57,717 bases of DNA from contig JBHJGR010000284.1 in NCBI GenBank assembly GCA_050331615.1, positions 1-57,717 on the forward strand, written 5' to 3'. Source of the DNA: Elainellaceae cyanobacterium. Lineage in GTDB: Bacteria > Cyanobacteriota > Cyanobacteriia > CAKZMO01. This document shows, piece by piece, positions 21,708-54,266 of the stretch. The translations under genes were made by a program, and so were the position numbers. A model generated the notes under the pieces. The model was not told the origin of the DNA and did no database searches. It saw only the letters and a program-made list of their open reading frames with translations. Position 1 is the first letter of the stretch, and each line of letters starts with the position of its first letter.

Positions 21708-21800
21708 AGTGAGGAATGATCCAGGATTGTTAGTTGCGAAGGATAGTGATCAAAAGCCTTGACGCCTATGGCAGTGAGGGTTGAGTTTTCAACAGTAGCC

Positions 21801-35603: not shown

Positions 35604-35614
35604 AGAAAATTATT

Positions 35615-35767: not shown

Positions 35768-35775
35768 GAGAATTT

Positions 35776-37053: not shown

Positions 37054-37068
37054 AGGATTATAGAAACG

Positions 37069-38487
37069 TCAGCAACGGAGCCGCTCGTGCAGGTCTCCCA
37101 AATTTTTTGTCCTGGAGTGATTGTTGTCCTGATCGCTAATGAGGTCGGGTTTGAATAAATGGTGCAAAATCTCATTGGTCGCTCGGTCAGTTGATTTTCC
37201 ATCTAGGCAATGAGTTAATTCCTTGACAATCGTGCTCTGATGGTCACTTGAACCTTCTTGGACTGACTGGCTCATGACCTGATCGATGACTGTTTCTAAA
37301 TCAGGTTTAGCATCTTGATAAACAGTGGTGAAGTCACCGTACTCTTCCAGATGCTTATAATTTTTGGAGGGTCCTTCCGGCATCAGGTCAAACGCTACCA
37401 CCCGTCGCCCCATAATCAGCGCTTCTTCGGCAACAGTAGAGGCGCGGGTAATCAGTAACTCTGAGATGGAAAGCAAAGAGTAAACATCCAGTTCTGTCAC
37501 GCTCGGTTCAATCACCACCACAGAAGACTCGATCTGAGCATTCGGAATCTCATCCCGATAAATATTGGGCGACAGGCTATCGAGCGGGTGCATTTTAACC
37601 AGCAATATGTATTTAGAGAAGTCCAGGTTGCTGTAAATTTGCTGCATGTATTGCCGATAAAGGGCTTGCTCATCTGACCAGGCAGCGTACTCCGCTTGCA
37701 GGGTAGTTGCCAGAAGAATAATGCGCTTTTGCGGCAATTGGGATTGGAGTGTGGGATAGCGATCTGTTAGTTTTTTAAGCGCTTCATCGGGATTAATTTG
37801 AGCCAGGCGATCATGTAGGGGGTTGCCAACGATGCGGAACCGTTGGGGATCTCCACCATACTTCTCCACGATCTCTCGATAAACTCGTTTGCCCCACACC
37901 AGCACAATATCCGAAGCAGCGGAGGCTAAATCTTCAACGCTATCCGCACGAGTGCCGCCATGCTGAATCGACAGGGTTCTGACCCCAAATCGCTTCAGCG
38001 TGTCCACCGTCTCAACGCCCCAGAAATGGTAAACGTAGGGTCTGCGGTGATCCAGACAAAGAACAACCAGCTTTTGTTCAGGTTGGTGGCAGGCGCGGAT
38101 CAGGCTAAAGTAATCTGTCTGCACCGGGCATCCCAGTGCCTGGAGCTTTTCCAAATTGCTGGGCGAGAGCTTGAGGCGATGAATGCCAAAGAGAACAATC
38201 AAGTTAACTTGAATCCCTTTCTCTTTAACTTCGGGTCGCTTCAACAAATCAAGAATAATGGGAACCAGCAACCGTTCGCAGGCTTTGGAATAGAGGAGAA
38301 ACGTGATTTCCGGTTGAAAAGTGTTGGATCGCGATCGCAGTCGCAGTTGAATGTCCTGCCAGATCACGTTGAATTTGTCCGGGTAATTGAGGCTCTGTTG
38401 CAGCAAAAAATAGTCGTTTCCCAGCACTGCGGCTTCCAGCGGGTCAGTTGCTTTGCGAATAGTATCTTTGAGTAACTTCAGAGCCAT
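37069..38487 (-). CDS. GT-B protein, putative CMP-ulosonate glycosyltransferase
   Basis: IQHGG, VWG, VGNP, VKMHP (HP motif), STVAEEALIMGRRVV; directly downstream of kdsB. Confidence 0.6.
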   Translation of the reverse strand: MALKLLKDTIRKATDPLEAAVLGNDYFLLQQSLNYPDKFNVIWQDIQLRLRSRSNTFQPEITFLLYSKACERLLVPIILDLLKRPEVKEKGIQVNLIVLFGIHRLKLSPSNLEKLQALGCPVQTDYFSLIRACHQPEQKLVVLCLDHRRPYVYHFWGVETVDTLKRFGVRTLSIQHGGTRADSVEDLASAASDIVLVWGKRVYREIVEKYGGDPQRFRIVGNPLHDRLAQINPDEALKKLTDRYPTLQSQLPQKRIILLATTLQAEYAAWSDEQALYRQYMQQIYSNLDFSKYILLVKMHPLDSLSPNIYRDEIPNAQIESSVVVIEPSVTELDVYSLLSISELLITRASTVAEEALIMGRRVVAFDLMPEGPSKNYKHLEEYGDFTTVYQDAKPDLETVIDQVMSQSVQEGSSDHQSTIVKELTHCLDGKSTDRATNEILHHLFKPDLISDQDNNHSRTKNLGDLHERLRC

Positions 38488-38566
38488 ATTTCCCTCGCGA
38501 TCGCACTATTGAACTGATGGTTTGGAGAATTCAACTTTCGTCAGGGGGCAGAGAATCGGAGCACCT

Positions 38567-39304
38567 TTATGGGGTAGCGCCTCCTACCAACTGCAATCGT
38601 GCCCGATCCAGATCTTCTGGCGTGTTCACTTCCATCACAGGTGCGTCAATCTGACAGACCCGAATCGAATACCCATTCTCCAGCACTCGCAATTGCTCCA
38701 GTCCCTCGCACAACTCCAGAGGCGTTGCCGTCAATTGAGCATAATCCGCCAGGAAATCTCTGCGGAAGGCATACAGCCCCAGATGATGATAGACCGGAGC
38801 CGTACCCGGATTGCGAAAATGAGGAATGGGCGATCGCGAAAAGTAGATCGCGTACTGTTGGCGATTTAACAAAACCTTGACAATATTTGGGTCTGGATAA
38901 CCCGTCTCCAAATTCAATGGGCAGGCAAGGGTTGTCATATCCGGCGACTCGCCCTCCAGGTAAGGCGAAATCAGTTGAGTCAACACCTGCGGGGTGACAA
39001 AGGGCAAGTCTCCCTGCACATTGGCAACCACATCAAACGCCTCGTAACGGGCTGCCACCTCAGCAACGCGGTCAGTGCCGCTGAGGTGGTCACTCCGAGT
39101 CATCTCCACCCTGCCCCCAAAGCCGCGAACACAGGCTGCCACGTCTTCACTTTCAGTGGCAACAATGACCTCATCGAAGACGGTGCAACGTCTGGCGGCC
39201 TGGTAAACCCATTGCACCATAGGGCGATTGTCAATGATTGCTAAAGGTTTACCAGGCAACCGTTGGGCTGCATATCGAGCCGGGATCACCGCCAGAATTT
39301 TCAT
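38567..39304 (-). CDS. kdsB: CMP-Kdo synthetase-like cytidylyltransferase (copy 1)
   Basis: IPARYAAQRLPGKPL, SGTDR, NVQGDLP, YFSRSPIP, HLGLYAFR, EGLEQLRVLENG. Confidence 0.9.
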   Translation of the reverse strand: MKILAVIPARYAAQRLPGKPLAIIDNRPMVQWVYQAARRCTVFDEVIVATESEDVAACVRGFGGRVEMTRSDHLSGTDRVAEVAARYEAFDVVANVQGDLPFVTPQVLTQLISPYLEGESPDMTTLACPLNLETGYPDPNIVKVLLNRQQYAIYFSRSPIPHFRNPGTAPVYHHLGLYAFRRDFLADYAQLTATPLELCEGLEQLRVLENGYSIRVCQIDAPVMEVNTPEDLDRARLQLVGGATP

Positions 39305-39962
39305 GAATTAGCTCCGTAAAGTTCGCAATGGTTCGATCGGCATGGGCGAGGTCTGCACTGGAGAACGAAGTCAACACGCCTACACAAAACATGCCCGCTG
39401 CCTTTGCCGCCCTTACCCCCGACTGACTATCTTCAAACACCACACATTCAGAAGGAGAAACCCCCAGTGTGGATGCAACTTTCAGATAGACCTCCGGGTG
39501 AGGCTTGAGCTGCTGTACATCGTCGCGAGTGGCGATCGCATTGAAGGCGATCGCCAGTCCCAGACTCTTCAGCACCGTCAGCGCCTCCTGGCGACTCGAG
39601 CTGGTTGCTACACCCCGTCGCTTTTGGCTCGATTCCAGGTAATGAACAAATTCAACAACACCCGGTACGGGGGAAATTTGTCCCTTCTCCAGAAACGAGT
39701 GATAAGCAGCCCGTTTTGCCTGAATCAGTTGTTCCGGTTCCCCGGTCAACTGAAACTTGTTAAACCAGTAAGCAATTACGGACTGCTCCTTCATGCCTCG
39801 CCAAGCCACATCCTCAGCAGGTAGCTCAACGCCATAAGCCTCGCGAAATACAGCCTGATAGGCTGCAAACTTAAGAGGTTCAGTGTCAGCAATCACGCCA
39901 TCCAGGTCGAAAATAACTGCCTGACAATTGCTGAGGATGAGACTTAGAGAATCCTGGCTCAC
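39249..39962 (-). CDS. HAD-IA phosphatase (beta-PGM/CbbY-like)
   Basis: FDLDGVIADTE, ATSS, KPHPEVY, FEDSQSG; 4-nt GTGA overlap with the upstream synthase. Confidence 0.88.
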   Translation of the reverse strand: MSQDSLSLILSNCQAVIFDLDGVIADTEPLKFAAYQAVFREAYGVELPAEDVAWRGMKEQSVIAYWFNKFQLTGEPEQLIQAKRAAYHSFLEKGQISPVPGVVEFVHYLESSQKRRGVATSSSRQEALTVLKSLGLAIAFNAIATRDDVQQLKPHPEVYLKVASTLGVSPSECVVFEDSQSGVRAAKAAGMFCVGVLTSFSSADLAHADRTIANFTELIHENSGGDPGSICSPTVAW

Positions 39963-40981
39963 GCAACCAACCTCCGACCCACCGCAGTACAGATCTTATC
40001 CAGCACCTGCACCATCTGACTAAACTCATCAAAGGACAGTGCCTGCTCTTTATCACTCTTCGCATTGGCAGGGTCGGGATGCGTTTCAACCAGCAACCCA
40101 TCAATACCCAGAGCCGCCGCAGATTGTGCAACCAGAGGCACTTGCGCCGCAATTCCCATCGCGTGGGACGGATCAAGCACAATAGGCAGGTGGCTCAGCT
40201 CCTTCATCAGTGAGGCAGCGCAAACATCCAGACAAAAGCGAGTTTGTGGTTCAAAGGTGCGGATGCCCCGCTCACAGAGAATCACTTTGGGGTTGCCATT
40301 GCAGAGAATGAAGTCAGCCGCCTGCAAGAATTCCTTAATCGTGGTCATGAAACCGCGCTTCAGAACGATTGGCTGCTTCAACTGTCCACACATTGCCAGC
40401 AGCGAGAAGTTATACATGGACTTGGTGCCAATCTGAATAATATCAGCCACTTCCGCCACTTCTGCCAGATGGGTGGTGTCCTTGACTTCGGTAATAATTT
40501 TCATTCCGAATTCATCCCGCACTTTTGCCAGCAGCCTCAGACCTTCATGCGCCAGGCCCTGGAAAGAGTACGGAGAAGTGCGGGGTTTGAATGCACCAGC
40601 ACGGAACACTTTGATATCAAACTTGCTCCGCAAAAATTCAGCCGTCCGCATCACCTGGTCTTCCGACTCAACTGCGCAGGGTCCCGCCATCATAACGGTT
40701 AAGCCCCGACCAAACACAACGTCATTACCCAGGTCAATTACCGTATCCTGGCTCTGAAACTTGCGGGTGCAGAGTTGATACTCGGTTGACATTTCAATAA
40801 CCGACTCAACCCCATCTACGCTCTTGAGATAGTCAACATCTCCCTTCCATTTAGCAGAAGTTACCAGCAGGGTCTGCTCTCCCCAGGTCACTTCACGAGC
40901 CTCAACATCTTGTTGAGAAAACCATTGCTTCAACTGAGTGAGAGTTGCTTCAGTGGATGCCTGACTGAGTTTGATAATCAT
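39959..40981 (-). CDS. Class I-beta DAH7P-synthase-like aldolase with N-terminal ACT/ferredoxin-like domain
   Basis: AGPCAVES, FKPRTSPYSFQG, LKRG, CERGIRTFE, DPSH, ETHPDP..A.SD. Confidence 0.9.
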   Translation of the reverse strand: MIIKLSQASTEATLTQLKQWFSQQDVEAREVTWGEQTLLVTSAKWKGDVDYLKSVDGVESVIEMSTEYQLCTRKFQSQDTVIDLGNDVVFGRGLTVMMAGPCAVESEDQVMRTAEFLRSKFDIKVFRAGAFKPRTSPYSFQGLAHEGLRLLAKVRDEFGMKIITEVKDTTHLAEVAEVADIIQIGTKSMYNFSLLAMCGQLKQPIVLKRGFMTTIKEFLQAADFILCNGNPKVILCERGIRTFEPQTRFCLDVCAASLMKELSHLPIVLDPSHAMGIAAQVPLVAQSAAALGIDGLLVETHPDPANAKSDKEQALSFDEFSQMVQVLDKICTAVGRRLVA

Positions 40982-41030
40982 AATTTACCTATCAATAGAG
41001 TGGCTCAAAGGTGACAAAATTAGATCCGAT

Positions 41031-42065
41031 CTACAGCGCATGGCTGGAAATGATATCCCGTAACCAGACCAATCCAACACATTGTTCGGATACGTCTACA
41101 ACCGGGATTACATCAAACCCTGCATGGCGCTTGTCGAGTTCTCGTAACAGATGCAGCAGCCGCGTTTCTGGGGTGGCTACGAAGGGACGAGACGCCATCA
41201 AATCCTTGGCTTTCAGATCAGACAAATCAGGCTGAACAATCAGTCTTCTGCGAACATCTCCATCCGTAACCAGACCCAGAAGATGATTCTCGTGGTCAAC
41301 CACACAAGTACATCCAACTTGCTTGGTGTTCATCTCCAGAACCGTTTGACAGATATCTGTATCAGGAGTGACGCGGGGTACCTGATCACGTACTCGCATG
41401 ATGTCCGAGACGCGAAGATACAGATTCTTACCAAAGAGTTTGACCAGTTGCACCAGGTAATCTTCGTTCTTGAGAATGTAAGAACCGGAGATCAGGACAT
41501 CAACTTCCAACTCTCGCAGCAAAGCAGCGGATAGATGATTAACACCGCCATCAACGTGAACCTTAACCTTAGGGAAGGCCCTGCGAAACGCTTTGATCTT
41601 ATTGACAACTTGGTCATTAAACTGTCCACCGGAAACCCCAGGCGTGGCAGACATAAACAAGGCATAATCCAGAATCTGCGCTTTATCAAACAGCTCACTG
41701 ACTGGGGTCTCGGTATTGATTGCCAGTCCGAAATTACAGCCTACCTTGTGTCTGACTTCTTCGAGCTGAGACCAACTCAAATTATTCTCAACGTGAATAC
41801 AGAAGTAATCTTCTGGCTGCAGTTTGACGTCCTGCAGATGAGGTAAAGGATCCTCTACACTCAAATGAACATCAAAAGGTAGACAGGTATTGCGGCGTAA
41901 CTGTTCAATATCTTTCAAATGCAGCGTCTTAGCGTTGTCGCTAACATCATAATGAATAATATCAACACCTACAATGTCCAACTTCTTGAGTACATCGGGT
42001 AAAGCAACTGCACCATCAACAGCAGCTAATAAAGAACAGGAAATTTTAGGAATTTTGTTGAGCAT
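41031..42065 (-). CDS. Fusion of a ribulose-phosphate 3-epimerase-like domain and a KdsD-type CBS pair
   Basis: IHYD, DVHL, PGVSGGQF, VDGGVN, ISGS, followed by VSDIM...CVVD...GLVTDGDVRR...IPVVD. Confidence 0.8.
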   Translation of the reverse strand: MLNKIPKISCSLLAAVDGAVALPDVLKKLDIVGVDIIHYDVSDNAKTLHLKDIEQLRRNTCLPFDVHLSVEDPLPHLQDVKLQPEDYFCIHVENNLSWSQLEEVRHKVGCNFGLAINTETPVSELFDKAQILDYALFMSATPGVSGGQFNDQVVNKIKAFRRAFPKVKVHVDGGVNHLSAALLRELEVDVLISGSYILKNEDYLVQLVKLFGKNLYLRVSDIMRVRDQVPRVTPDTDICQTVLEMNTKQVGCTCVVDHENHLLGLVTDGDVRRRLIVQPDLSDLKAKDLMASRPFVATPETRLLHLLRELDKRHAGFDVIPVVDVSEQCVGLVWLRDIISSHAL

Positions 42066-42112
42066 GATAATGCCTCTCAAATTAGTAGTAATTCGTAAGA
42101 CTTAAAGAGTCG

Positions 42113-42841
42113 CTATACTCCTAGGAGTTGTTTGACCTTTTCAAGATCCTCTGGAGTATCGACCCCGATAGAATCGTAATTAACTAAACAGCATTGAATT
42201 TTATAGCCATTCTCCAGTATTCGAAGCTGCTCAAGCGACTCTGCAAGCTCTAGGGGAGTCTGTAGCATGCTCACATACTTTTCTAGGAAATCTTTCCGAT
42301 AACAGTACAAACCAATGTGCCGATAGTACTTCTTCTCATTCAGAGCACTCCGATAGAAGGGAATTGGATATCGGGAGAAATACAGAGCCTCGAGGTTATG
42401 GTTAAGTGCCACTTTGACCGTATGAGGAGATCTAAGTTCTTCAAGATCACAAGATTCAACTACCGGCGTAGAACAAACGGCTTCTGGCGCGTCTAGCAAA
42501 GCTTGAATACAAGCATCAATTACAGTTGGATCAATTAGGGGTTCATCACCCTGAATATTCACGACTATGTCACAAACATCACGCTTGACTGCTTCGTAGC
42601 AGCGATCGCTTCCAGTCGCGATGTGCGTACCAGTCATCACCGCTCTGCCACCGAAAGATATAACATTGTCATAAATCCGCTGGTCATCTGTTGCAACCAG
42701 AACTTGATCCAGTAATTTGCTCTTTAAGCACTTCTCGTAAACCATCTGGATCATCGTCTTACCGCCAATGGTTGCCAGCGGCTTGCCCTCGAAGCGAGTT
42801 GATTTATAGCGGGCTGGGATAACGCCAATTACACTTGTCAT
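42113..42841 (-). CDS. kdsB: CMP-Kdo synthetase-like cytidylyltransferase (copy 2)
   Basis: IPARYKSTRFEGKPL, TGSDR, NIQGDEP, YFSRYPIP, HIGLY, ESLEQLRILENG, GVDTPED. Confidence 0.92.
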   Translation of the reverse strand: MTSVIGVIPARYKSTRFEGKPLATIGGKTMIQMVYEKCLKSKLLDQVLVATDDQRIYDNVISFGGRAVMTGTHIATGSDRCYEAVKRDVCDIVVNIQGDEPLIDPTVIDACIQALLDAPEAVCSTPVVESCDLEELRSPHTVKVALNHNLEALYFSRYPIPFYRSALNEKKYYRHIGLYCYRKDFLEKYVSMLQTPLELAESLEQLRILENGYKIQCCLVNYDSIGVDTPEDLEKVKQLLGV

Positions 42842-43649
42842 ATTATGTTAACCATTAGTAACTCAAGCGTGCGTTAGAGACTCTAGATATCCTACTTTTA
42901 GCTTATCAATTCAACCTTCTTAGGATGGCGGGTCTTATGCGATCGATGAAGTCAATAATAAGAAGTATACTTACCTGAAAACAAATTGGCCAGATAAAGC
43001 AGCATCTCCTTGTCAAAAGATAATGATCAGTGAGTAGAAACACTCCGGTTGAACACTGAGTTTAGCCGTCCTAAATAGGAATTTAAGTCGTTCTCAAACA
43101 GATTTCTAGAGCTGAAGAGATGTCTTCACTAAAAAAATATAGTACCCCCTATCTTATCTATCTACAAATAGACTCTCAGAGCCAAGCAAATCAAGGATTT
43201 CCAGAAGGTTCAGAAAGAGTTATAGGTTGGACTTCTTTAAAGATCACATAAACAAAGGGCTTAGCAAATTTGTTGACCTAAAGCTATATCTCACCAAAAT
43301 TTAATCATTTCTACCTGAAATCTTTATCCTCAAGTATCTCAGCTAATAAAAATTAGACTTTATGCTACTAGCTTCGTAAGCATCATAGAATCTAAGACAT
43401 TAGACCTAGTTTCACCACCTAACAGTTAGAGGAAAAACTTAGGCAATAATTTAGGATCACTGCAGCAGATCTCAGTGAGTTCTGCAGCCAATCGTTGTAG
43501 AAAGCGCAGGCCAGAGAGCTGTAAGTAGACAAATGCTGCATATCTACAACAGGCAAACGGTTATCAAGCAGACTGGTATCGATTCTCATCTATGCTGGCT
43601 CTGTTGCAGCGAATTATACGAATGAACTTATCTACTCTTACCTCGTAGA

Positions 43650-43743
43650 TAAGTGTCTAGCTATAAGCAAAGCCATCGGGATGCGCCCCCTACCAGGAGG
43701 CGCATCCCAATAATAGCTCCGTTTACTTGTGACCACCTACTTA
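43650..43743. mobile_element. MITE-like element, family A
   Basis: taagtg...cctactta termini; gggatgcgcc...ggcgcatccc hairpin. Confidence 0.65.
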
Positions 43744-43747
43744 GTAT

Positions 43748-45280
43748 TTATTCAGATACTTCCCAAAGGTCTTCCATCATCTCAACCTGACCAGGGCAAG
43801 TTGGTTTTTGCGTGCGCTGAACAATTTTAACAGCAACCTGCTCAGTAGAAATAGCGCCTTGACGACCAATAGGGGTATTGGTCTGATCCGTCAAAAGTTT
43901 GGGGGGCCTAACTAGTAGAAAACAAGCTTGCGGATATTCTGCTGCCGCTACTTTGGTCAGTCCCTCGATCGCATATTTAGCGCTGGTGTAGTGGGGCCAG
44001 TCACTTGGTGAGGACTGAGAGACCACAACTGATGAAATGATAACAACAGAACCTGAATTCTCAGATAGCAGGTTGAGAAAAGCTGACATTGGCACGCTCA
44101 TCAGCGCGAGGCTTTTACTCACATAATCATTGACTCGTGCGATCGCCGTTGGTTCAACCCAGAGGGGTAAAATTGCAGGACAGGCATTGCAGATCAAGAA
44201 GTCCAATTTGCCATACTTTTCAAGAATCTCCTGCTGAGCCGCAAGACACCAGGAGAGTTCCGAGGCATCTCCCTGCATCAGCACGATCTCGCCTGATGCA
44301 TCTGCTAGCGCAGTTTGCAGTTGCTCTGCCTCAGAACGACTGCGAAGAAAGTTGACCAGAACGGTGCATCCCTGCAAAGCTAGAGATTGGGCGATCGCCG
44401 CTCCCAACCCCCGACTGGCTCCTGTTACCAGAGCAACCTTACCCTTGAGAGCATCGGATCGGGGCATCAAGGCTTCAATTGAGGTTGTGGTACTGGTCGG
44501 AGCAGCCGGACGAATAAAGGATTGAATCTCTCCGCGTGCCAGAGGCATTCCATCGGCAGCTAGCTCGACTCTGGTTCGCAGCAGATTGTAGCGATCGTCA
44601 AGCTGAATTAAAGATGCTTTATAAGAAAATGCTTCAGTGAGATCAGGAATAGACTCTTCCAGATTCAAAGAGAACTTAGAGAACAGAGCTTGAGTTCCCG
44701 GCAACTCCATTCCCACAAAGTAGCTTGCCCACAGAAGGATAGCGACTTCAACTTCCCCAATTCCCTTTTGAGACAAACTCAAATTATTGATTAATTTCCT
44801 TAACGCCTCGATTTCAGGACAGTAAGTTTCTTCAATCTGAAGTCCCTCAGTTAAATCGGATGTGGACAATATTGCCGCTTCAGTACGAGCTGCGTAAGGG
44901 GCAGCGGCTTTGATTCGAGAAGGTTTTCCGGGAGAGAAGTGAGCCGTCACCTTTGACATTAACCGTCTACCATCAAAAATCCGGATGACTGCCTTTTCTG
45001 AGGTAGTTTCATTTATCTCAAAAGAGTACGGAAGATCGACAAATAGAGGGGCTGGAAACTCCAAAACAATTTTGCTCAATCGCATCTCCGGGCGATCCTG
45101 TAAGTGGCTTAAGCCAAACAGTCCGCCAAGAATTCCGAATACCACACGATTGGCAAAGGGAGTTTTGCGAGCGTAATCATCGGAAAGATGGAGTGGATTG
45201 CGATCGTGGCTTGCCTGACTGAACAGTTCCAGATCATCAATGGAAAAGCGAACTAGAGTTTTAGCCTGTGAAGATTCCAT
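43748..45280 (-). CDS. MaoC (hotdog) dehydratase - SDR reductase fusion
   Basis: SHDRNPLH hydratase motif, second hotdog-like VGMELPG, SDR TGASRGLG and YTSAK. Confidence 0.82.
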   Translation of the reverse strand: MESSQAKTLVRFSIDDLELFSQASHDRNPLHLSDDYARKTPFANRVVFGILGGLFGLSHLQDRPEMRLSKIVLEFPAPLFVDLPYSFEINETTSEKAVIRIFDGRRLMSKVTAHFSPGKPSRIKAAAPYAARTEAAILSTSDLTEGLQIEETYCPEIEALRKLINNLSLSQKGIGEVEVAILLWASYFVGMELPGTQALFSKFSLNLEESIPDLTEAFSYKASLIQLDDRYNLLRTRVELAADGMPLARGEIQSFIRPAAPTSTTTSIEALMPRSDALKGKVALVTGASRGLGAAIAQSLALQGCTVLVNFLRSRSEAEQLQTALADASGEIVLMQGDASELSWCLAAQQEILEKYGKLDFLICNACPAILPLWVEPTAIARVNDYVSKSLALMSVPMSAFLNLLSENSGSVVIISSVVVSQSSPSDWPHYTSAKYAIEGLTKVAAAEYPQACFLLVRPPKLLTDQTNTPIGRQGAISTEQVAVKIVQRTQKPTCPGQVEMMEDLWEVSE

Positions 45281-45438
45281 AATTTCTTTCAACCTGATAG
45301 TTCGCAACCAATGTTTGTGTTAACTACACACCAGTACTTACCCAGCCTTCATCAAAAATTTGGGATGGGGGGGGTAGAAACTCCAAGAGCGCCCCCGTAC
45401 TCTACTTAAACATTAAACAGAAAAATCAGCGAGTTTGT

Positions 45439-46545
45439 TTACTCTGACTGAGAATGAACTGTTCTTAAATCAAGGCTATCAAGCCATTCAATAACTTCGG
45501 GATTTTCCGCAGCCCACTGCTGGCACTGCGCTCTAACCTGCTGTAAATGCTCATCGACATTTTCTGACGTGACATAGACTCCAAAGTCGTCAGGTACGGT
45601 GTCGACCTGATGATTGAACATTCGGTTGAGAAGCAGGTTGCCAGTCGTATAAGTGTAATGAGATGGGTCTTCGTAATACTCCATCACCTCTTTAATAGGC
45701 TCAGTCGTAATGCTGTTACACCCTGAAAAGTCCCACACTGGGTGAATACTGATCACTTCACGAACCCACTGTGCATAAGTAGGCCAGTAATTTTCTATTC
45801 TTGAAGAATAGAAGTGGGTTACGTGACTAGGCGATAAAAAAAACTTAACGTCAATCCCCTCAGTACGGGAGGTTTCTACTTTGGCACGGAAACTATCAAT
45901 GGCTTCCTCTGACAATTCATAGTCCCAGTACATCTGGGCGGGTTCGGAAAAGTCTGTTTGAAGTTGCGTCTCAAACTGACGAATTCTGGTCAACCCAATT
46001 TCATGTTTGTAAGTTCCATCTTCATCAAAATATACTCCCCGCTCCTCAGGATTGAGAATCAGATTGAGAGAATCTAGGGACAAGTACAATCCAAAAAGAT
46101 CATTTAGAATTGGATGAGGCAAATCTAATCTTTCGCTTGAGAAACCAGTTTCCACAGTATTATTTTGATTGAACGCAAAGAAATTCAGCTCGACGATAAC
46201 CCGCTCGAGATCTTCTACATGTCGATTTGTGTACTGAAAAAACCGTTTTAATTCGTAGGCATTGGCAGCTAGGATCGAGAGGTTATAGACCGGAGCGTAG
46301 GATAAGGATATTGCAGAAACATAATCAGGATCCAGTCCTCTGGCAACACCAGATGCACCAATCAGAACAGTCTTGGGTTCAGCCTGAAGAACTTTATAAG
46401 CTTTGACGAGTCGATCATTGTTAACTCGTCCGCCCCCTTTACGGATACCGTAGGGATCTACTAAGAGATTAGTCGTAAATATACTGAGAAGGTAGACTGC
46501 GGCACAACTGCAGAAAGCTTTGATGAACTTACTGTACTGAGACAT
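45439..46545 (-). CDS. Membrane-anchored SGNH-like (DltD/AlgJ-like) MBOAT partner
   Basis: N-terminal transmembrane helix ending NLLVDPYG; IGAS, YNLS, C-terminal DPSH (DxxH). Confidence 0.6.
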   Translation of the reverse strand: MSQYSKFIKAFCSCAAVYLLSIFTTNLLVDPYGIRKGGGRVNNDRLVKAYKVLQAEPKTVLIGASGVARGLDPDYVSAISLSYAPVYNLSILAANAYELKRFFQYTNRHVEDLERVIVELNFFAFNQNNTVETGFSSERLDLPHPILNDLFGLYLSLDSLNLILNPEERGVYFDEDGTYKHEIGLTRIRQFETQLQTDFSEPAQMYWDYELSEEAIDSFRAKVETSRTEGIDVKFFLSPSHVTHFYSSRIENYWPTYAQWVREVISIHPVWDFSGCNSITTEPIKEVMEYYEDPSHYTYTTGNLLLNRMFNHQVDTVPDDFGVYVTSENVDEHLQQVRAQCQQWAAENPEVIEWLDSLDLRTVHSQSE

Positions 46546-46679
46546 ATCACATCTTTGGGGAAAATACGACAGGGATTTCTACTTCCTTGAAGACTAAACT
46601 CTCTGGAAGAAACGGTAGAAGCGAGACCTTGACAGGGGCTTTTGACAAACAACCTGAGTTGCGTCTAGAGTTCTTTCAG

Positions 46680-46721
46680 GGTTTGATTTTTTAATAGCGA
46701 TCGCTATTAAAAAATCAAACC
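46680..46721. repeat. Perfect 42-bp palindrome centred on HIP1
   Basis: ggtttgattttttaatagcga|tcgctattaaaaaatcaaacc, with no spacer. Confidence 0.95.
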
Positions 46722-46733
46722 TCGAAGAAAATC

Positions 46734-48338
46734 TTAGAACTGGAAGTAAATAAATTCGCTAACTTGGCTAAGACCGAGAAATGCAATAACGGCGATCGCA
46801 CTAGTCAACCCTGCCCACAGCACAGTAGGACGCCACTCAGAATTTTTCCACACGATTGTCAACCAGCGGGGATGATGTTGCAGTTCATGGACGGGGTTGA
46901 AGTTCAGACCTGGTTCAAATCGTGCCATCCACTGTTGAGTATTGGGAAAGTAGAAAACAATCACCATCAATACTGCCAATCCCAATACACCAGCCTTGTT
47001 ATCCGGGAAGAGCTGGTTCGGGAAAATGGCTCCATCTGTCAGGGCGAACCCATTGGTACCCAGCATAGATGCAATGACCGTCATGGCATTGTCAACACTG
47101 GGTGCCCGGAAAAAGATCATGGCAACAACAACGGCTAGGAAAGTAATTCCCTGTCCAATCCGTTGCCCCAACCAATTCACTTTCTTTAAGTTGTAGCCTC
47201 TAGACTTTAAGATCATATGCCAGCCGTGGTTGACAGTAAGATAAAATCCATGCAAAAAACCAAATGCAATGTATTGCCAACCAGCGCCATGCCAGAGACC
47301 AGCAAGAAACATTGTAATAATCGTTGGAGTAGCGATCAGCTCGATGAAGGCTCCGAAACTGCCAACTCCACGCTTGATTAGACTCTTACCCTGTCTCATA
47401 CGACGGCGGGAGAAGTTTAGGGCGATCGGGTTATAGAGGTAGCGGGTTAAAAAGCGGGTCAGAGTCATGTGCCAGCGTCCCCAAAAGTCAATAATATTGA
47501 TTGCTTTATAGGGGGAATTAAAGTTAAGCGGGAGCTTGATGCCAAATAATCGAGCTGCACCAATCGCCATATCCGAATAACCGGAGAAGTCGAAGTAAAT
47601 CTGCATCGTATACGCCAGCGCTCCCATCCAGGCTTCTGGCATGCTCAGCGGCACGCCCTGACTGGCAGCATTGAAAACAGGAGTGGAGTAAAGGGCAATC
47701 TGGTCAGCCAGGATTACCTTCTTAAACAGCCCTATCGAGAAAATCGATAGACCGACCGCTACATCATCTTGATTCAACCCAAATTTCGATTGCTTTGAAA
47801 ACTGGGGCATCATCTCGTCATGATTAACAATGGGACCGGCGATCAGTTGGGGGAAGAAGGTCACGAAAAGGCAATAATCAAGGAATCGATAATGCCGGGT
47901 TTCCCCTTCCATGCTGTCCATCAAGTAAGAGATTTGCTGAAATGTATAAAATGAAATGCCTAGCGGTAAAATAATCTGGGCTATACTAAACGATGTTCCG
48001 ACAAGGGCGTTGACGTTATCAATAAAGAAGTTGAAATATTTATAGTAGCCAATTAGCCCTAAATTAAATACGACACCCAATACCAATAGGAATTTTCCCC
48101 GGTTTTCGTTCTCAGTAAGATGCGCCTGATTGAGTACCTGCCCTAGAGCGTAGTTCACCCCAATTGAGAGAAACAGCAGCAGCAAATAGGGCGGATTCCA
48201 CCAACCGTAGAAGAAAAAAGAAACCGTAATGAGCCAGAAGATTGGCGATCGCCGACTTCCCAGACGGCTGGTTAAATAAAATCCCAGCAGCGTAATCGGG
48301 AGGAAAAGTAATATGAATTCGTATGAGTTGAAAAGCAT
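46734..48338 (-). CDS. MBOAT O-acyltransferase (AlgI/DltB-like)
   Basis: MLFNS start, LPLGISFYTFQ, FPQLIAGPI, YFDFSGYSDMAIG, FWGRWHMTL, GLWHGA, C-terminal EFIYFQF. Confidence 0.95.
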   Translation of the reverse strand: MLFNSYEFILLFLPITLLGFYLTSRLGSRRSPIFWLITVSFFFYGWWNPPYLLLLFLSIGVNYALGQVLNQAHLTENENRGKFLLVLGVVFNLGLIGYYKYFNFFIDNVNALVGTSFSIAQIILPLGISFYTFQQISYLMDSMEGETRHYRFLDYCLFVTFFPQLIAGPIVNHDEMMPQFSKQSKFGLNQDDVAVGLSIFSIGLFKKVILADQIALYSTPVFNAASQGVPLSMPEAWMGALAYTMQIYFDFSGYSDMAIGAARLFGIKLPLNFNSPYKAINIIDFWGRWHMTLTRFLTRYLYNPIALNFSRRRMRQGKSLIKRGVGSFGAFIELIATPTIITMFLAGLWHGAGWQYIAFGFLHGFYLTVNHGWHMILKSRGYNLKKVNWLGQRIGQGITFLAVVVAMIFFRAPSVDNAMTVIASMLGTNGFALTDGAIFPNQLFPDNKAGVLGLAVLMVIVFYFPNTQQWMARFEPGLNFNPVHELQHHPRWLTIVWKNSEWRPTVLWAGLTSAIAVIAFLGLSQVSEFIYFQF

Positions 48339-48725
48339 TTTAGGATGAGGGGTTGGAGTATAACTGCAAACTTCTCTAGAATCACAGATAAATAGAATCT
48401 GAAATGTTACTTTGAAAATGGGCAAAGAGCAGCTTCGAAAGCAAACTCTAAAAAAATCTGCAATCCTGTCTCAGACTCAGGCAGACCCTCGGATTACAGA
48501 TAAATCAAAATCAGACTTCTACTGTCAGAAATGCGGCTTTACTAAATCTTCCAAAAGTTAGTTAGTCTGCGTTTCCTATCACGTTCGCGACCCTGAGGTT
48601 AATTGAACTTACTTCCGGTATGGTAAAGGGCAGCGAGCAATTTAGTACCTGAGAGGGCGGAGCACAATTTAAGTTGTAGAAAGAACTGTCGCAAGAAGAT
48701 TTTGAGTACCCCGCCTCCTCCAACG

Positions 48726-48980
48726 CTAAACGGTTAGCTTAGTTAGCTTAGTTTGAATCAAGTCAACGAATTCACCAACATTACTAAGCTGAGCGACCTC
48801 AGACGTTTTGAACTTGATACCGAATTCCTGCTCAACTCCCAATACTAAATTGATATGAGCCATTGAGTCCCAGCCACTGACATCTTTCGCAGAAGTATTG
48901 TCTTCCACCGTGATGTCGTCATCATCGAATACATCCTGAAAGATCGTATTGAGTTGCTCGTAAATTTCTTCGCGGTTCAT
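48726..48980 (-). CDS. Acyl carrier protein
   Basis: WDSMAH phosphopantetheine site, VEQEFGIKF, NVGEFVDLI. Confidence 0.92.
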   Translation of the reverse strand: MNREEIYEQLNTIFQDVFDDDDITVEDNTSAKDVSGWDSMAHINLVLGVEQEFGIKFKTSEVAQLSNVGEFVDLIQTKLTKLTV

Positions 48981-48990
48981 CGGATATCTC

Positions 48991-50913
48991 CTATACTGAA
49001 ACGGTTGTTTTGATGAAAGTGTTAAACCCTTTGAATTGATCCAGATCAAGCTTCCACAGACTTCGGAACGCCTCCCCGTCTTCCTGCTTCTCGTGGATCA
49101 ACTCAAAGCCAAGTTTTGCATAGTGGTCCTTCACCATGCCATTTTTAGCTGTCTGAATATATTCTCCATACAATACGCGATACCTCCGGTAGCGTGCCTG
49201 ATTGACCAGCACATTGAGAACTTCCTGCTCGACCTGTCGTCCCAATACCCGGCAACTCATTAACCAAGTATCTATATGCAGCGCCTTCTCAGATTCAAAG
49301 ATAATGGGCTTGGCGATCGCCACACTGATCAAACCGTTATCCCCAAAGTCATCTTTCAGACGAACTTGAAGACACAGAACATCAGGGTCTTCACTCATCT
49401 GCTTGACCTGCGCTTCGGTATAACGATGAGTCGTCAGGTTGAATTGATTACTCTTGTTAATCAACTGAGTAGCACGAGGCAGGGAAACAGAATCGACTGA
49501 GGCAACGCTCATCTCCATGTGGAGGCTTTCCAAAAAGCCCTCCAGACTATGCGCCTTTTCCTTCAGTTCATTTCTGCGACTGTTCGCCAGATATTGTTCT
49601 GCCCGCTTCATGTCATCGCCGGAGAAGGAAACCGCCTCAAAGTATCCAGCGTCAGACAAACAACGGACGTAGAGCGCTGGATCTTCCGGCACTTCGGGTA
49701 CTGCAACAGCGGGAGCAAACTGGCGTACCACTGCTCGCTCAACCGGATTGTCGTCAAAGAAAACCAGAGAATCCAAACCAATGTTCAGAGTGGTTGCAAT
49801 CCGCTTAAGATTAGTCGCCTTATCTTCCCAGTTGGCGACAAATACAGCAATGTCATCTTGACGCAAGATCATCTCTGGGTGCTTTTCAAACGGCTCCAGA
49901 GCATTCGCTTCTTCATTCTTGGAGCAAACTGCCAGGATAATGCCTCGCTCCTTCAACGCTTTTGCGTAAGCCTGAAAGGCGTAAAAGGCTTCACCAACAG
50001 CGTTGCCTTGCCCTAGAAGGATTCCCGACAGCCCATCGTCGCCAATCACTCCACCCCACACAGTGTTGTCTAGATCGAGTACCAGGCACTTGTAGGATAG
50101 TCCCCGAACGGCAGCTAGCATCCGCGCCAAGTGATCCCCATAGAGGGGCGAATAAACTGGAGAGATGTCTTGTTTTGCGTGGTGCCAGAGGGCAGCGTCA
50201 CACCAGAGATGCTTACCGATATAGGCTGCAATCTCATCTGTGTTAAGCAGCAACACCTTGTGTTCAGAAGCTCTTGAGCGTAAAACCTCATTTACCTGAT
50301 TTAGAATGCTTGCCGGTGAAGCAGGTAGCACTGCATCGTAATGCCCAAACAAGTGCTCAGGCGGAATGACCATCATCTGCTGGATGGCGATCGCCTTCAA
50401 CTGAGTATTGATTGTTTCCCAGAGATGCACCCATTCATCGACCCGCTGCTCTACAGCAGCTTTGACATCTTGAACGGGAGAAGCCCAGGGTAGCTTCACC
50501 CCAACATCATTGCCATTGAGTGCCAGGAGTACAACATCGGGTTGGAATTCGTACAGACCAGAGGCAGGGTTCAAAACTTCTTGACGGTACTGACCGTAGG
50601 GCGCAACATAGCATTCTGCAATCAAGCCTCGACGCAGCGCAGCGACCCGAATTGCAGGAAGCAGATGCTCGATTGTAGAGGATGCCAACACTGCAAGCCG
50701 AATCGTCTGTAAGCCACTTGCCTCACCAGGATGGGCAGCCAGAACTTCCTGGAGGCGACGATCAACTCGTGAAGTTTGTGTGAAATCAAGGTTATGCTTC
50801 GCGATTTCACGTAAGCAACGAATCTGCTCCTTGGATTCGCTAATCTGCTTACAAATTGCAATTGCCTCTCGAAAATCAGAGTGCTTAGGTAGCCAGTGTA
50901 GAAATTCTCTCAT
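48991..50913 (-). CDS. FkbH-like HAD-IIIC glyceryl-ACP synthase
   Basis: LVLDLDNTVWGG, CSKN, FFDDNPVE, NKSNQFN, LMSCRV; ~260-aa N-terminal extension. Confidence 0.92.
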   Translation of the reverse strand: MREFLHWLPKHSDFREAIAICKQISESKEQIRCLREIAKHNLDFTQTSRVDRRLQEVLAAHPGEASGLQTIRLAVLASSTIEHLLPAIRVAALRRGLIAECYVAPYGQYRQEVLNPASGLYEFQPDVVLLALNGNDVGVKLPWASPVQDVKAAVEQRVDEWVHLWETINTQLKAIAIQQMMVIPPEHLFGHYDAVLPASPASILNQVNEVLRSRASEHKVLLLNTDEIAAYIGKHLWCDAALWHHAKQDISPVYSPLYGDHLARMLAAVRGLSYKCLVLDLDNTVWGGVIGDDGLSGILLGQGNAVGEAFYAFQAYAKALKERGIILAVCSKNEEANALEPFEKHPEMILRQDDIAVFVANWEDKATNLKRIATTLNIGLDSLVFFDDNPVERAVVRQFAPAVAVPEVPEDPALYVRCLSDAGYFEAVSFSGDDMKRAEQYLANSRRNELKEKAHSLEGFLESLHMEMSVASVDSVSLPRATQLINKSNQFNLTTHRYTEAQVKQMSEDPDVLCLQVRLKDDFGDNGLISVAIAKPIIFESEKALHIDTWLMSCRVLGRQVEQEVLNVLVNQARYRRYRVLYGEYIQTAKNGMVKDHYAKLGFELIHEKQEDGEAFRSLWKLDLDQFKGFNTFIKTTVSV

Positions 50914-51194
50914 TGTCTTAAGGAGAACTGCTCTCCAGAGTAGGTTTGCTGGCCTAACTGAAAACTTTACCGAACTTATTGACTCAGGTTACGATTCAGA
51001 CACAATACAAGCAAGCATATTTCGGCAGGCTTTAAAGAAATAATATAATTATGTAAAGTTTCACTGAAGCCGATTCCTCTTAGAATTTAGGTTTTGTCGA
51101 GCAATCAAAAAAAGCAAATCGCGTCGTGTTTAGTATAAGATACTGTACACAACACGTGTGGGATTTTTTCCTGCTTTGTCGGGTAAAGCTTTAA

Positions 51195-52358
51195 CTAATC
51201 AGCCTTCAATTCCTGAACCATCTCTACTATTGCAGGATTTTGTGCTACCCAACGTTCACGATCGCTACGAATTTGCTCCAGATGAGTAGCGATATTGTCG
51301 GGAGTTACCCAAACTCCAAATGCTTCGGGAATATTTTGCCCTTGAGGTTGCGGAGAACAAATCTCCTCGCCCTGGGATTGTAGAATACAGTTAAGAATTA
51401 AATTCCCCACCTCTTCCCGGTAGTGAGCACCGTCCCGGAAGTAATGCATGTCATCAGAAATTGTTTCCGCTGTAACAAAGTTGTAAACCGAAAAATCCCA
51501 AATAGGGATAATTTCAGCAACCTGCCGCTTCCAATCTTCAAAAACAGACCAGAGATTTGCAGCTTGAATTGCTTCCAGGTGACTTGCATGAAAAGGTGAA
51601 ATAAATACTTTGAGTTCGATATCGTGCTTTTCGCATAAATCAACAATTGCTTTCAAACTATCTAGCATCTCTGGTGAAAGAGAGAACTGCCCGTATAACT
51701 CTGACCGATGTAAGTATGTTTTGAGATATTCCTGAAAAATATCAATCGTCGGTTTATTAGAGTTAAAATACTCCTCATTCCTCGTCCCGTTAGAGTAGTA
51801 GGGAAATCCAGTGCCCTCATCTGTGTTTTCGGTAACTGTTTCAATACTGGCTTCCAGTGCATCTATGGAAAGTATTACTTTTAGAAGATCACTAACTACC
51901 ACATGATCTTGTCCCAACCTATCTTCGTAAAAATCCACTTCAGTAACGTTCTTGTGATTATACGAAACAAAATCCAACCCCAATACAACCACCTCTAAAT
52001 CAGGTTGATTGGCGATTGCGTGTTCCAGATATCTAAGCTGCTCATAGGCATTAGAATCGGGCAGCCCCAAATTGTAAACGGGTTGATAGTTTGCCAGAGA
52101 TGGATGATCAGGATTGAGTCCGTACTCAACTCCAGAAGTTCCTATAAATACTGCTTTGGGCTTGATCCGAACCACATCAACTGCTTTAAACAAGCGAACG
52201 TGGCTTGCTTCCTTTGGCTTCTCCTGATTCAAGCCTGCGATCGCGGGACTACCAAGAATCCCAAAAGGATCAATTATCAGATTGAATAACCCTATACCGA
52301 GGACTCCGATCAGAGTTGCGCAAATGACGATCTGATTGTACTTGGAATACGCTTTCAT
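51195..52358 (-). CDS. Membrane-anchored SGNH-like (DltD/AlgJ-like) protein, paralog of 45439-46545
   Basis: Transmembrane helix ending NLIIDPFG; IGTS, YNLG, FISPFH, WDFS, DGAH, FGVWVT. Confidence 0.6.
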   Translation of the reverse strand: MKAYSKYNQIVICATLIGVLGIGLFNLIIDPFGILGSPAIAGLNQEKPKEASHVRLFKAVDVVRIKPKAVFIGTSGVEYGLNPDHPSLANYQPVYNLGLPDSNAYEQLRYLEHAIANQPDLEVVVLGLDFVSYNHKNVTEVDFYEDRLGQDHVVVSDLLKVILSIDALEASIETVTENTDEGTGFPYYSNGTRNEEYFNSNKPTIDIFQEYLKTYLHRSELYGQFSLSPEMLDSLKAIVDLCEKHDIELKVFISPFHASHLEAIQAANLWSVFEDWKRQVAEIIPIWDFSVYNFVTAETISDDMHYFRDGAHYREEVGNLILNCILQSQGEEICSPQPQGQNIPEAFGVWVTPDNIATHLEQIRSDRERWVAQNPAIVEMVQELKAD

Positions 52359-52362
52359 CTTG

Positions 52363-52430
52363 AAATTGGAAGTAAAGAAACGTAGGAACTTAATCAACCA
52401 ACAAAAAAACAAACATAAAGCGGCAGCATA
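52363..52430 (-). pseudogene. Possible 3' remnant of a second MBOAT gene
   Basis: Minus strand encodes VPTFLYFQF, then CAA (TAA would be the stop), immediately before the ATG at 52358. A hydrophobic stretch lies upstream in a shifted frame. Confidence 0.4.
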
Positions 52431-52460
52431 CCTGAGAGTATTAGACTCGCAGGGGGAAGA

Positions 52461-54266
52461 TTACATCGATGGAGTGTAACTACGATTCAAAACAACTTCT
52501 TCGTAAGTTCCTGATTTCACAACCTGCCCCTTTTCCATCACGTAAATGCGATCGCAGTGTTCAACGGTTGTGAGTCGGTGAGCAATGATGATCATGGTCT
52601 TGCTTCCATTCAGAGACTGAATGGCTTCTGTAACAAGTTGCTCTGTTTCGTTGTCCAGAGCTGAAGTTGCCTCATCCAGCACTAGCAACTCACGTTCATG
52701 ATAAAGCGCACGCGCAATGCCAATCCGCTGACGCTGGCCACCCGATAAACAGACTCCGCGTTCTCCAATGCGAGTCTTCAAACCGTCAGGTAAGTTCTTT
52801 ACGAGTTCAGAGAGTTGAGCTGCTTCAAGAGATTCATAAAGTCGAGCGTAATCAATCTGCTCATCTAGGACTCCAAAAGCCACGTTGCGCTCAAGCGTGT
52901 CATCAATCAAGAAGATGGATTGGGGAATGTAGCCAATCATGTTTTGCCAGCTCCGCAAATCCCCATAAACAGATTGACCATCAACTTTAATATCGCCGGA
53001 CTGAGGTTGCAAAAGTCCCAGGATCAGGTCAACTAGGGTCGTCTTCCCAGCCCCCGACTTACCGATGAGGGCGATCGACTCACCCTTACGCAGAGCTAGA
53101 TTGACTCGGCGCAGGGCAGGCTCCTTAGCCCCTTCGTATTGGAAGACCACATCTTGCAGATCAATTTGCCGATTGAAAGTCAATGAACCTGAGCTGTTTG
53201 GAGCGATCGCGTGCCCATTCAGTTGAGCTGCTGGAAGGGATTTGCCAGTGAGTTGCTCAATCTGCTTCAAATCAAAATAAAGTTTGTCCACTACATAGGA
53301 GGAGCTTCGGAGCTTGGTCATGCCAGATGTCAGTTGAGCCGCGACAGGCATAAGCCGAATTGCAACCACACCAAACACACCCAGTGTGGCAATCAGGTTA
53401 TCAGTATCTCGACCCAGCAGCAATGAAATTGAGGTGAGACCCAGCACAAAAGTAATGATCAACGCCTCAATCACAATGCGGGGCATCATCCCGAAGCTCA
53501 TTAATGAACTACAGGATTCTGCATAGTGCCGCGCCTGCTCCTTCAACTGCTGCTCAAAGAAAGGTTCACATCCGATCACTCGGGTTTCCTTCAAGCCACC
53601 CAGACTATGATTGATAATTCGGATCATTTCCGCTTTCGTAGAAGAAGCGGTTTTCCCCCAACGCGAGATCCGCTTTCGAAACTGAACGACGAGAGCAAAC
53701 GCGAAGAGCAGTATTAAAGAAATGATGAGCGTTGAGATGGCATCTGTTATTAGCAGCAGCACAATAAAAGCTGTCATCATTACCAGACTCACCGTGGAGT
53801 TGAGCATCTCCAGCAACGTGCTGTTGCAGAAAATCTCCGTTTCATTGACAATATTCTGAATTAGAAATGCGGTGTTGTTCTTCAGGTGAAACTCATAGGG
53901 CAATCTAAGGTAGGAATTGAGCAATCTTGAGCGCAATTCCCCTTGATGAGAAAGACCAAATAAGAATATGTATTCACGAACCTTAAAGGTCATGAAAGAC
54001 TTGATATAAAAAATAACTAGAATGGCGATCGCAGCCGCAACAATAAACTGGTTTGTTGAGTTGAAATTAAAAGTTTCATAAATCCAATTCAACCCAGCAT
54101 TCCTATTGATGACACTTGGGCTACTCGCGAGAGCAATAAAAGGACCAATTAAGCCAATACCAACGGCTTCTAGCACAGAGGTTGACAGAATAAATAAGAG
54201 CAGTAAAGGAAGTTGCCTTTTCCGCTCATAGAGAATGTATAGAAACTTACGAAGGTATTGATTCAT
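52461..54266 (-). CDS. ABC exporter, fused TMD-NBD (HepA/PglK-like)
   Basis: N-terminal transmembrane domain; GKSGAGKT, IGYIPQ, LSGGQRQRIGIARA, LDEATSALD, IAHRL. Confidence 0.9.
   Translation of the reverse strand: MNQYLRKFLYILYERKRQLPLLLLFILSTSVLEAVGIGLIGPFIALASSPSVINRNAGLNWIYETFNFNSTNQFIVAAAIAILVIFYIKSFMTFKVREYIFLFGLSHQGELRSRLLNSYLRLPYEFHLKNNTAFLIQNIVNETEIFCNSTLLEMLNSTVSLVMMTAFIVLLLITDAISTLIISLILLFAFALVVQFRKRISRWGKTASSTKAEMIRIINHSLGGLKETRVIGCEPFFEQQLKEQARHYAESCSSLMSFGMMPRIVIEALIITFVLGLTSISLLLGRDTDNLIATLGVFGVVAIRLMPVAAQLTSGMTKLRSSSYVVDKLYFDLKQIEQLTGKSLPAAQLNGHAIAPNSSGSLTFNRQIDLQDVVFQYEGAKEPALRRVNLALRKGESIALIGKSGAGKTTLVDLILGLLQPQSGDIKVDGQSVYGDLRSWQNMIGYIPQSIFLIDDTLERNVAFGVLDEQIDYARLYESLEAAQLSELVKNLPDGLKTRIGERGVCLSGGQRQRIGIARALYHERELLVLDEATSALDNETEQLVTEAIQSLNGSKTMIIIAHRLTTVEHCDRIYVMEKGQVVKSGTYEEVVLNRSYTPSM

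Follow-up and report, generated by a model that had tools for sequence, protein, structure and literature searches.

The analysed window was one whole contig (JBHJGR010000284.1, here C284; 57,717 nucleotides) of the 5.99-Mb, 432-contig genome of an Elainellaceae cyanobacterium (GCA_050331615.1). On its minus strand, seven genes running in one direction (43748-54266) formed a unit that is predicted to transfer an acyl group from a carrier protein to a glycan outside the cytoplasm. The first gene (52461-54266) encoded an ATP-binding cassette (ABC) exporter of the PglK/MsbA/HepA-like type with fused membrane and ATPase domains. It was followed by the genes for DUF1574-like protein a (51195-52358), FkbH (48991-50913), a stand-alone acyl carrier protein (ACP) of 84 residues (48726-48980), a membrane-bound O-acyltransferase (MBOAT) of the AlgI/PatA type (46734-48338), DUF1574-like protein b (45439-46545), and a fusion of a MaoC-type hot-dog dehydratase with a short-chain dehydrogenase/reductase (MaoC-SDR; 43748-45307). 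The intergenic gaps were, in this order, 102, 281, 10, 387, 188, and 131 bp, the first separating the ABC exporter gene from that of protein a. The six genes from protein a to MaoC-SDR had been recognized in a first-pass annotation of the window, and all were found on the minus strand where it had placed them; its range, however, stopped short of the ABC exporter, which the operon also takes in. A search of the contig for AMP-binding, ketosynthase, and condensation domains was negative, in agreement with the earlier remark that polyketide synthase (PKS), nonribosomal peptide synthetase (NRPS), and adenylation enzymes were missing, and such domains were present on other contigs of the genome. 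The start of protein a was placed at the ATG at 52358, and the longest open reading frame (ORF) reached a TTG at 52412. A consensus scan detected a terminator-like hairpin (43673-43713, minus strand) directly 3' of the MaoC-SDR stop codon, with a stem of 19 pairs including 10 G-C pairs; neither the promoter nor the terminator scan of the region gave more sites than shuffled sequences. The ABC exporter scored 110.5 bits for ABC_tran and 39.1 bits for ABC_membrane in Pfam, and its best NCBIfam matches were PglK, HepA, and MsbA, each under the equivalog cut-off.

The FkbH protein, which combined an N-terminal FkbH_N domain with a HAD-IIIC phosphatase domain and a Cys-bearing domain at the C-terminus, scored 294.8 bits against the curated family TIGR01686 over residues 274-605 (cut-off 146.65) and 32.7 bits against the Pfam FkbH_N domain (cut-off 27). 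Residues 63-431 matched the structural-genomics protein BF1531 (PDB 3slr) with an E-value of 6.6e-73. Alignment of 16 FkbH relatives with 48-100% identity revealed that D280 and D282 of HAD motif I (DxDxT), together with C276 and C554, were invariant. The gene was the only FkbH match in the genome, and its closest relatives came from Elainellaceae, Halomicronema, Sphaerothrix, and Romeria. An alignment spanning 96% of the length was obtained with an FkbH-like protein on a Streptomyces plasmid, adjoining genes for an ACP and a 3-ketoacyl-ACP synthase III (KAS-III) in a tetronate-style context. The ACP of the window started 10 bp past the fkbH stop codon, matched PP-binding (PF00550) with 28.4 bits against a cut-off of 20.8, and carried a WDSM serine motif in its translation; in NCBIfam it matched ACP models (E 4.5e-10) and, more weakly, the DltC model (E 4.3e-4). 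The available passages on OzmB describe the conversion of 1,3-bisphosphoglycerate to phosphoglyceryl-S-enzyme, its dephosphorylation, and the transfer of glyceryl to an ACP, and those on the tetronate and methoxymalonyl pathways describe glyceryl-ACP made by FkbH with a stand-alone ACP. Because of its family membership and this published chemistry, we infer that the FkbH of the window loads glyceryl on the adjacent ACP. Two longer relatives were also observed, P0033 (1101 residues) and P0013 (821 residues), of which P0033 was a condensation domain (PF00668) fused to FkbH; this fusion hints at further uses of the same loader.

The MBOAT scored 86.4 bits against PF03062 (cut-off 27) and 175.3 bits against the DltB equivalog TIGR04091, whose cut-off of 375 was not reached. 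Among 24 orthologues, H290 was invariant and Y531 nearly invariant. The protein ended in SEFIYFQF, and its terminal FIYFQF hexapeptide with the stop codon (46734-46754, minus strand) made up an acyl-shuttle motif of the FXYXXF type that the MBOAT carries at its own C-terminus. This was the sole FxYxxF-stop within the operon, where no DltX-like small ORF with such an ending was found, and the same ending was present in 51 of 55 full-length MBOAT orthologues. In the available passages of a published account of MBOAT/SGNH systems (PMC12148441), DltB passes D-Ala from DltC to the Tyr of the FXYXXF motif of DltX and then to DltD, whereas PatA auto-acylates an FXYXXF motif at its own C-terminus and PatB finishes the transfer. 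The Tyr-shuttle logic of the first-pass annotation is in agreement with these passages, in which a carrier-protein donor is reserved for Dlt and acyl-CoA is assigned to the other pathways (PMC12148441).

The two DUF1574-like proteins, both with hydrophobic N-termini, were paralogues with 35% identity and are putative acyl-transfer partners of the SGNH/DltD type. An alignment of 35 sequences of the partner family (A2) showed that S65 in an early G-x-S, N88, and H296 were invariant and that position 293 was D or E in 34 of the 35. Both paralogues of the window retained this Ser/Asn/Asp-x-x-His pattern, which in protein a was formed by the family's invariant Ser75, Asn96, Asp309, and His312; we read S65, N88, D/E293, and H296 as probable counterparts of the SGNH blocks. 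Protein b itself had no Pfam or NCBIfam match, and a weak DUF1574 match was found in 15 of the 35 family members (best E 2.3e-5). The nearest clusters in the ESM Atlas, which serve as leads only, were SGNH/GDSL (0.97), DUF1574 (0.91), and DltD (0.90).

The last gene of the unit encoded a protein with two halves. Its N-terminal 285 residues matched human 3-hydroxyacyl-thioester dehydratase 2 (PDB 3ir3, E 6.6e-8) and the (R)-specific enoyl-CoA hydratases 5cpg (E 9.1e-6) and 1iq6, and the C-terminal half, with 94.9 bits for adh_short in Pfam, resembled FabG-like SDRs. In 12 MaoC-SDR fusions from five phyla, residues D35, N37, P38, and H40 of the D-x-N-P-x-H motif were invariant, as were the Ser-Tyr-Lys triad of the SDR part (S426, Y440, and K444) and G296, S298, R299, G300, L301, and G302 of its Gly-rich NAD(P)-binding motif. 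The fusion looks like a 3-hydroxyacyl-thioester dehydratase joined to a reductase, and for this reason a path from glyceryl-ACP through pyruvoyl-ACP to lactyl-ACP is favoured, with lactyl over glyceryl as the likely transferred group at this locus. A software table gives D-lactate-ACP as a loading product of FkbH.

To place the unit among other genomes, a pattern scan was run with one genome per species, which gave at least 580 stretches encoding FkbH relatives, and the best 80 loci (46-78% identity) were used. They came from Pseudomonadota, Acidobacteriota, Elusimicrobiota, Myxococcota, Actinomycetota, Cyanobacteriota, and a candidate division. An ACP adjoined FkbH in 78 of the 80 loci. An MBOAT was present in 57, on the same strand in 54, and lay within 300 bp of fkbH-acp in 41 and within 2.5 kb in 14 more. 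The survey of fkbH-acp-mboat synteny that the first-pass annotation had suggested was thus strongly positive, and since the arrangement recurs in 57 of 80 loci of other species, it lies far beyond chance; the gene set is conserved and non-random. In 39 of the 80 loci, partner ORFs of about 330-460 residues lay no more than 3.5 kb from the cassette; they fell into five sequence groups. In comparisons with hhalign, the partner group of the window was linked to group gD with a probability of 95.5% and gD to gA with 96.3%, and the values for gB and gC were 27.8% and 62.5%, which gave no secure tie to the partner family of the window; jackhmmer started from protein a retrieved relatives in just 6 of the 80 loci. 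Full-length MaoC-SDR adjoined FkbH-ACP in 11 loci, in four of which (L025, L030, L034, and L051) it sat between the acp and MBOAT genes, and ABC matches accompanied 12. A metagenome search for MaoC-SDR listed 80 loci, of which 69 were dropped as they matched the SDR half only; FkbH was found beside 5 of the 11 near-full-length copies that were kept, and 5 of the 6 copies with no FkbH had less than 1.4 kb of upstream sequence. The cyanobacterial framing of the earlier annotation did not hold, because a search of a sample of 401 cyanobacterial genomes detected FkbH (E <= 1e-100) in just 4, the source genome included, but the cassette was found in many Pseudomonadota, Acidobacteriota, and others.

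The MBOATs were then compared in a quick maximum-likelihood tree of 67 sequences, comprising the FkbH-adjacent ones and the others from the same six genomes. All 56 FkbH-adjacent MBOATs, with one other, fell into one clade with an SH-aLRT support of 100, and the 10 remaining MBOATs of the six genomes, including three paralogues from the source genome, lay outside it; this separate clade supports the earlier reading of a dedicated relay. The three paralogues were encoded on contigs C211, C153, and C373, with no ACP or FkbH detected near them; those on C153 and C373 were each followed by an ORF of about 400 residues, and C211 was just 3 kb long. The MBOAT of the window was nearer to proteobacterial FkbH-linked MBOATs (E-values to about 1e-150) than to the paralogues in its own genome (1e-50 to 1e-68).

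We consider it probable, at roughly 0.6, that the unit is a carrier-protein-dependent MBOAT relay which esterifies a glycan outside the cytoplasm with a C3 acyl group derived from glycerate, a reading built on gene content and on analogy with known enzymes. The first-pass interpretation was partly supported, and its core idea is still the best account of the data. FkbH would take 1,3-bisphosphoglycerate and form a thioester on an enzyme Cys, the HAD domain would remove the 3-phosphate, and the glyceryl group would pass to the adjacent ACP. MaoC-SDR would dehydrate glyceryl-ACP to the enol of pyruvoyl-ACP and reduce it to lactyl-ACP; in loci without this fusion, the group would stay glyceryl. 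The MBOAT would pick the acyl group off the ACP at the cytoplasmic face, and His290 would move it to Tyr531 of the FIYFQF motif, as in DltB/DltX and PatA. One or both of the DUF1574-like proteins, putatively anchored by their N-termini, may then accept the acyl group on the conserved Ser and esterify the glycan. The ABC exporter might, more speculatively, move the glycan, lipid-linked or nascent, to the outer side of the membrane.

Several observations weigh against this reading. The partner proteins were tied to known families only below threshold: protein a matched DUF1574 with an E-value of 6.8e-4 and 19.5 bits (cut-off 29.1), and the best PDB match of the A2 profile, DltD 6o93, had an E-value of 0.081. 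The earlier label "SGNH-like" for the two proteins flanking the core genes therefore keeps its conserved Ser/Asn/DxxH pattern and loses the backing of a significant family match. The MaoC half of the fusion reached 25.5 bits, slightly below the Pfam cut-off of 27, and the lactyl step leans on the formation of lactyl by FkbH-DH-KR modules that He et al. reportedly described in 2014. No MBOAT was found in the flanks of 23 of the 80 FkbH loci, 19 of these with over 6 kb of sequence on either flank and 4 with less than 3.2 kb downstream. Some of these loci carried WcbI-type or other enzymes, so FkbH-ACP is not bound to MBOATs alone. The FxYxxF tail, which the first-pass annotation had pointed out, was also present on the three ACP-less MBOATs of the genome (FIYFQF twice and YIYFDF once); the motif is therefore generic and uninformative on the choice of donor. 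The tree was partly circular as well as quick, the FkbH-adjacent MBOATs in it having been picked at E < 1e-90 to the MBOAT of the window, and the odd member of the clade, from Granulicella sp. S156 (L179/L181), had no FkbH or ACP within about 10 kb. The FkbH locus of that strain (L069) had neither an ACP nor an MBOAT, and the module seems to be split across its chromosome. Finally, the acylation operon was parted from the neighbouring sugar genes by the terminator-like hairpin and a gap of 906 bp (42842-43747; GC content about 0.42; no ORF of 70 residues or more on either strand). The operon had been described as lying inside a glycan cluster; sugar genes do adjoin it, but the gap and the 19-bp-stem hairpin reduce the relation to adjacency.

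Among the alternatives, the one that survives best keeps the same relay but has unmodified glyceryl transferred, with MaoC-SDR acting elsewhere, for example on another thioester or a sugar. Glyceryl-ACP is the sole documented product of FkbH in the available passages, and 69 of the 80 FkbH loci lack the full-length fusion, which most MBOAT-bearing loci do without. The position of MaoC-SDR argues the other way, since it is co-oriented in the operon, stands between the acp and MBOAT genes in the four loci named above, has FkbH beside it in 5 of the 11 full-length metagenome copies, and keeps its dehydratase and reductase residues invariant; we regard unmodified glyceryl as unlikely at this locus. 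Less probable still is that the MBOAT works with its partners as a conventional O-acetylation pair using acetyl-CoA, like AlgI/AlgJ or PatA/PatB, and that FkbH, ACP, and MaoC-SDR are merely co-located and feed a cytoplasmic acceptor. The length and fused motif of the MBOAT are like those of acetyl-type enzymes, FkbH-ACP also occurs with WcbI-type putative acetyltransferases where no MBOAT is present, and the published view, in its available passages, gives acyl-CoA to the MBOAT/SGNH pathways other than Dlt (PMC12148441). Simple co-location fits poorly with an MBOAT beside fkbH-acp in 57 loci across phyla, at 300 bp or less in 41, and with a clade apart from the further MBOATs that these genomes encode, and Pfam and NCBIfam scans of the operon proteins revealed no alternative acyl-acceptor enzyme. 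Action on an acceptor that is not a polysaccharide (for example a membrane lipid, periplasmic glucan, or small molecule exported by the ABC protein) is comparably improbable: the hairpin between the cassette and the sugar genes, the ABC exporter at the head of the operon, and the MBOAT of aeruginosin-type clusters that is proposed to acylate a glycosylated peptide speak for it, but no PKS, NRPS, or adenylation gene lies on the contig, in other species glycosyltransferases, sugar epimerases, sulfotransferases, and capsule genes make up most of the neighbourhood, and ABC matches are limited to 12 of 80 loci. The genome does carry PKS genes on other contigs, but service of FkbH-ACP to a PKS in trans was set aside, since conserved synteny with MBOATs is a better explanation for the pair.

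The contexts of the cassette in other species included glycosyltransferases, epimerases, sulfotransferases, and rkp capsule genes. Sinorhizobium meliloti pSymB accounted for 40 of the 60 plasmid matches listed, with the order MBOAT, 410-residue partner, ACP, and FkbH (L182, 8621-13818; L184, 815-5849), a few kilobases from rkp capsule-export genes. The 410-residue partner matched the A2 profile with an E-value of 2.3e-10. One S. meliloti record names this partner a "TonB-dependent receptor", which looks like a mis-annotation. The S. meliloti carriers include 1021/2011. The cassette was also present in several Stutzerimonas stutzeri strains, and a Rhodobacteraceae plasmid carried ACP-FkbH-MBOAT-hypothetical amid sulfotransferase and epimerase genes. 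On a Niveispirillum plasmid (L183, 8986-13466), the order was FkbH-ACP-WcbI-MaoC-SDR without an MBOAT, and the FkbH-ACP donor module may serve more than one kind of transferase. In another locus (L076, 12635-14152), FkbH-ACP adjoined a WcbI-family putative polysaccharide acetyltransferase, again without an MBOAT.

Beyond the 906-bp gap, co-oriented sugar genes on the minus strand (34344-42841) are a candidate source of the acceptor glycan. They encoded KdsB (42113-42841), an Rpe-CBS fusion (41031-42080), a KdsA-like synthase (39959-40981), a HAD phosphatase (39249-39962), a second CMP-sugar cytidylyltransferase (38567-39304), a Glyphos_transf-like protein (37069-38487), and two GT4 glycosyltransferases. 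Within the set at 38567-42841, the Rpe domain fused to CBS domains stood where arabinose-5-phosphate isomerase (KdsD) was expected, and the sugar made by this set may be a variant of 3-deoxy-D-manno-octulosonate (Kdo). The GC content was about 0.45-0.50 over 32000-54000 and about 0.55 elsewhere on the contig; together with the occurrence of FkbH in only 4 of the 401 cyanobacterial genomes, this suggests a horizontally acquired or fast-evolving glycan island. Rfam gave no family match in the window, the 906-bp gap included. The same contig carried kaiC, kaiA, and psbB (19599-22739, 11356-12888), which places the glycan region in an ordinary cyanobacterial chromosome context.

Literature searches found no paper describing an fkbH-acp-MBOAT cassette and nothing on this cassette among work on FkbH and polysaccharides. 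Papers naming both FkbH and MBOAT concerned aeruginosin/suomilide NRPS clusters only, with unrelated roles, and no occurrence of "lactyl-ACP", or of FkbH together with lactyl, dehydratase, and ketoreductase, was found. We know of no biosynthetic genes assigned to glyceryl or lactyl glycan esters, a point at which no search was aimed. The gene set is probably an undescribed route to surface polysaccharide esters. If the relay operates as proposed, an MBOAT clade tied to FkbH-ACP across phyla would change the picture of Dlt as the sole pathway with a carrier-protein donor, a glyceryl or lactyl type of glycan ester would be predicted, and a glycolytic intermediate would be drawn straight into envelope decoration without ATP-dependent activation. 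It would also give a probable role to the many genes annotated as "HAD-IIIC family phosphatase" that lie apart from PKS clusters, to the unannotated partner family, and to the recurrent MaoC-SDR fusion. The widest form of the proposal, to which we would give even odds, is that of a second widespread carrier-protein-dependent MBOAT pathway besides Dlt, in which a dedicated AlgI-like clade would accept glyceryl or lactyl from the ACP that FkbH has loaded. Together with DltD-like partners, this clade would put C3 hydroxy-acid esters on surface polysaccharides in hundreds of species among the Gram-negatives, acidobacteria, and cyanobacteria, S. meliloti with its pSymB among them. Since the cassette occurs in culturable, genetically tractable bacteria, the prediction is directly testable.

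Compared with known systems, the unit resembles Dlt (DltA, DltC, DltB, DltX, and DltD) in its predicted carrier-protein thioester donor, MBOAT transfer across the membrane, and FXYXXF Tyr, as described in the available passages of PMC12148441. The putative N-terminally anchored final transferase is a further likeness, DltD being the weak best PDB match of the partner family. It differs from Dlt in that the loader is FkbH, a HAD/thioester enzyme, instead of the adenylating DltA, which has no counterpart on the contig, and in that the predicted acyl group is a C3 hydroxy acid and not D-alanine. The MBOAT carries the shuttle motif itself, with no DltX-like ORF and the DltB equivalog cut-off missed, and the host is a cyanobacterium, most other hosts of the cassette being Gram-negative. 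The long MBOAT with its own C-terminal FxYxxF and an adjacent, here putative, extracytoplasmic partner of about 350-400 residues is shared with PatA/PatB and AlgI/AlgJ/AlgX, and the source genome appears to hold three more pairs of this kind. These systems are described without a carrier protein in the available passages (PMC12148441), whereas the cassette has a dedicated ACP and loader and a separate FkbH-linked MBOAT clade.

On the donor side, the unit shares with the FkbH/OzmB modules of methoxymalonyl-ACP and tetronate formation an FkbH above the family cut-off, a stand-alone ACP directly downstream, and the full-length architecture seen in the Streptomyces FkbH-like protein that adjoins a KAS-III gene. 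Its consumer, however, appears to be an MBOAT, and Pfam and NCBIfam searches found no match to FkbI/FkbK/FkbG-type oxidases or methyltransferase or to a FabH-like partner among the seven operon proteins; a PKS/NRPS partner is likewise missing. In trans-AT PKSs, loading modules of the FkbH-DH-KR type supply a lactyl starter unit. As in those modules, dehydration and ketoreduction of ACP-bound glycerate would follow loading by FkbH, but the cassette has a discrete MaoC/hydratase-2-type hot-dog domain fused to a classical SDR and no PKS DH/KR, and its product would reach a glycan instead of a polyketide. FkbH-type genes in glycan-modification loci are also known from the FkbH-ACP-WcbI set of Niveispirillum, which includes MaoC-SDR, from L076, and from cj1302 in the flagellar glycosylation locus of Campylobacter jejuni; in these systems the presumed transferase is soluble and no MBOAT is present. 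The cassette is best read as combining the donor logic of Dlt with the architecture of PatA/AlgI, with FkbH predicted to stand in the place of DltA.

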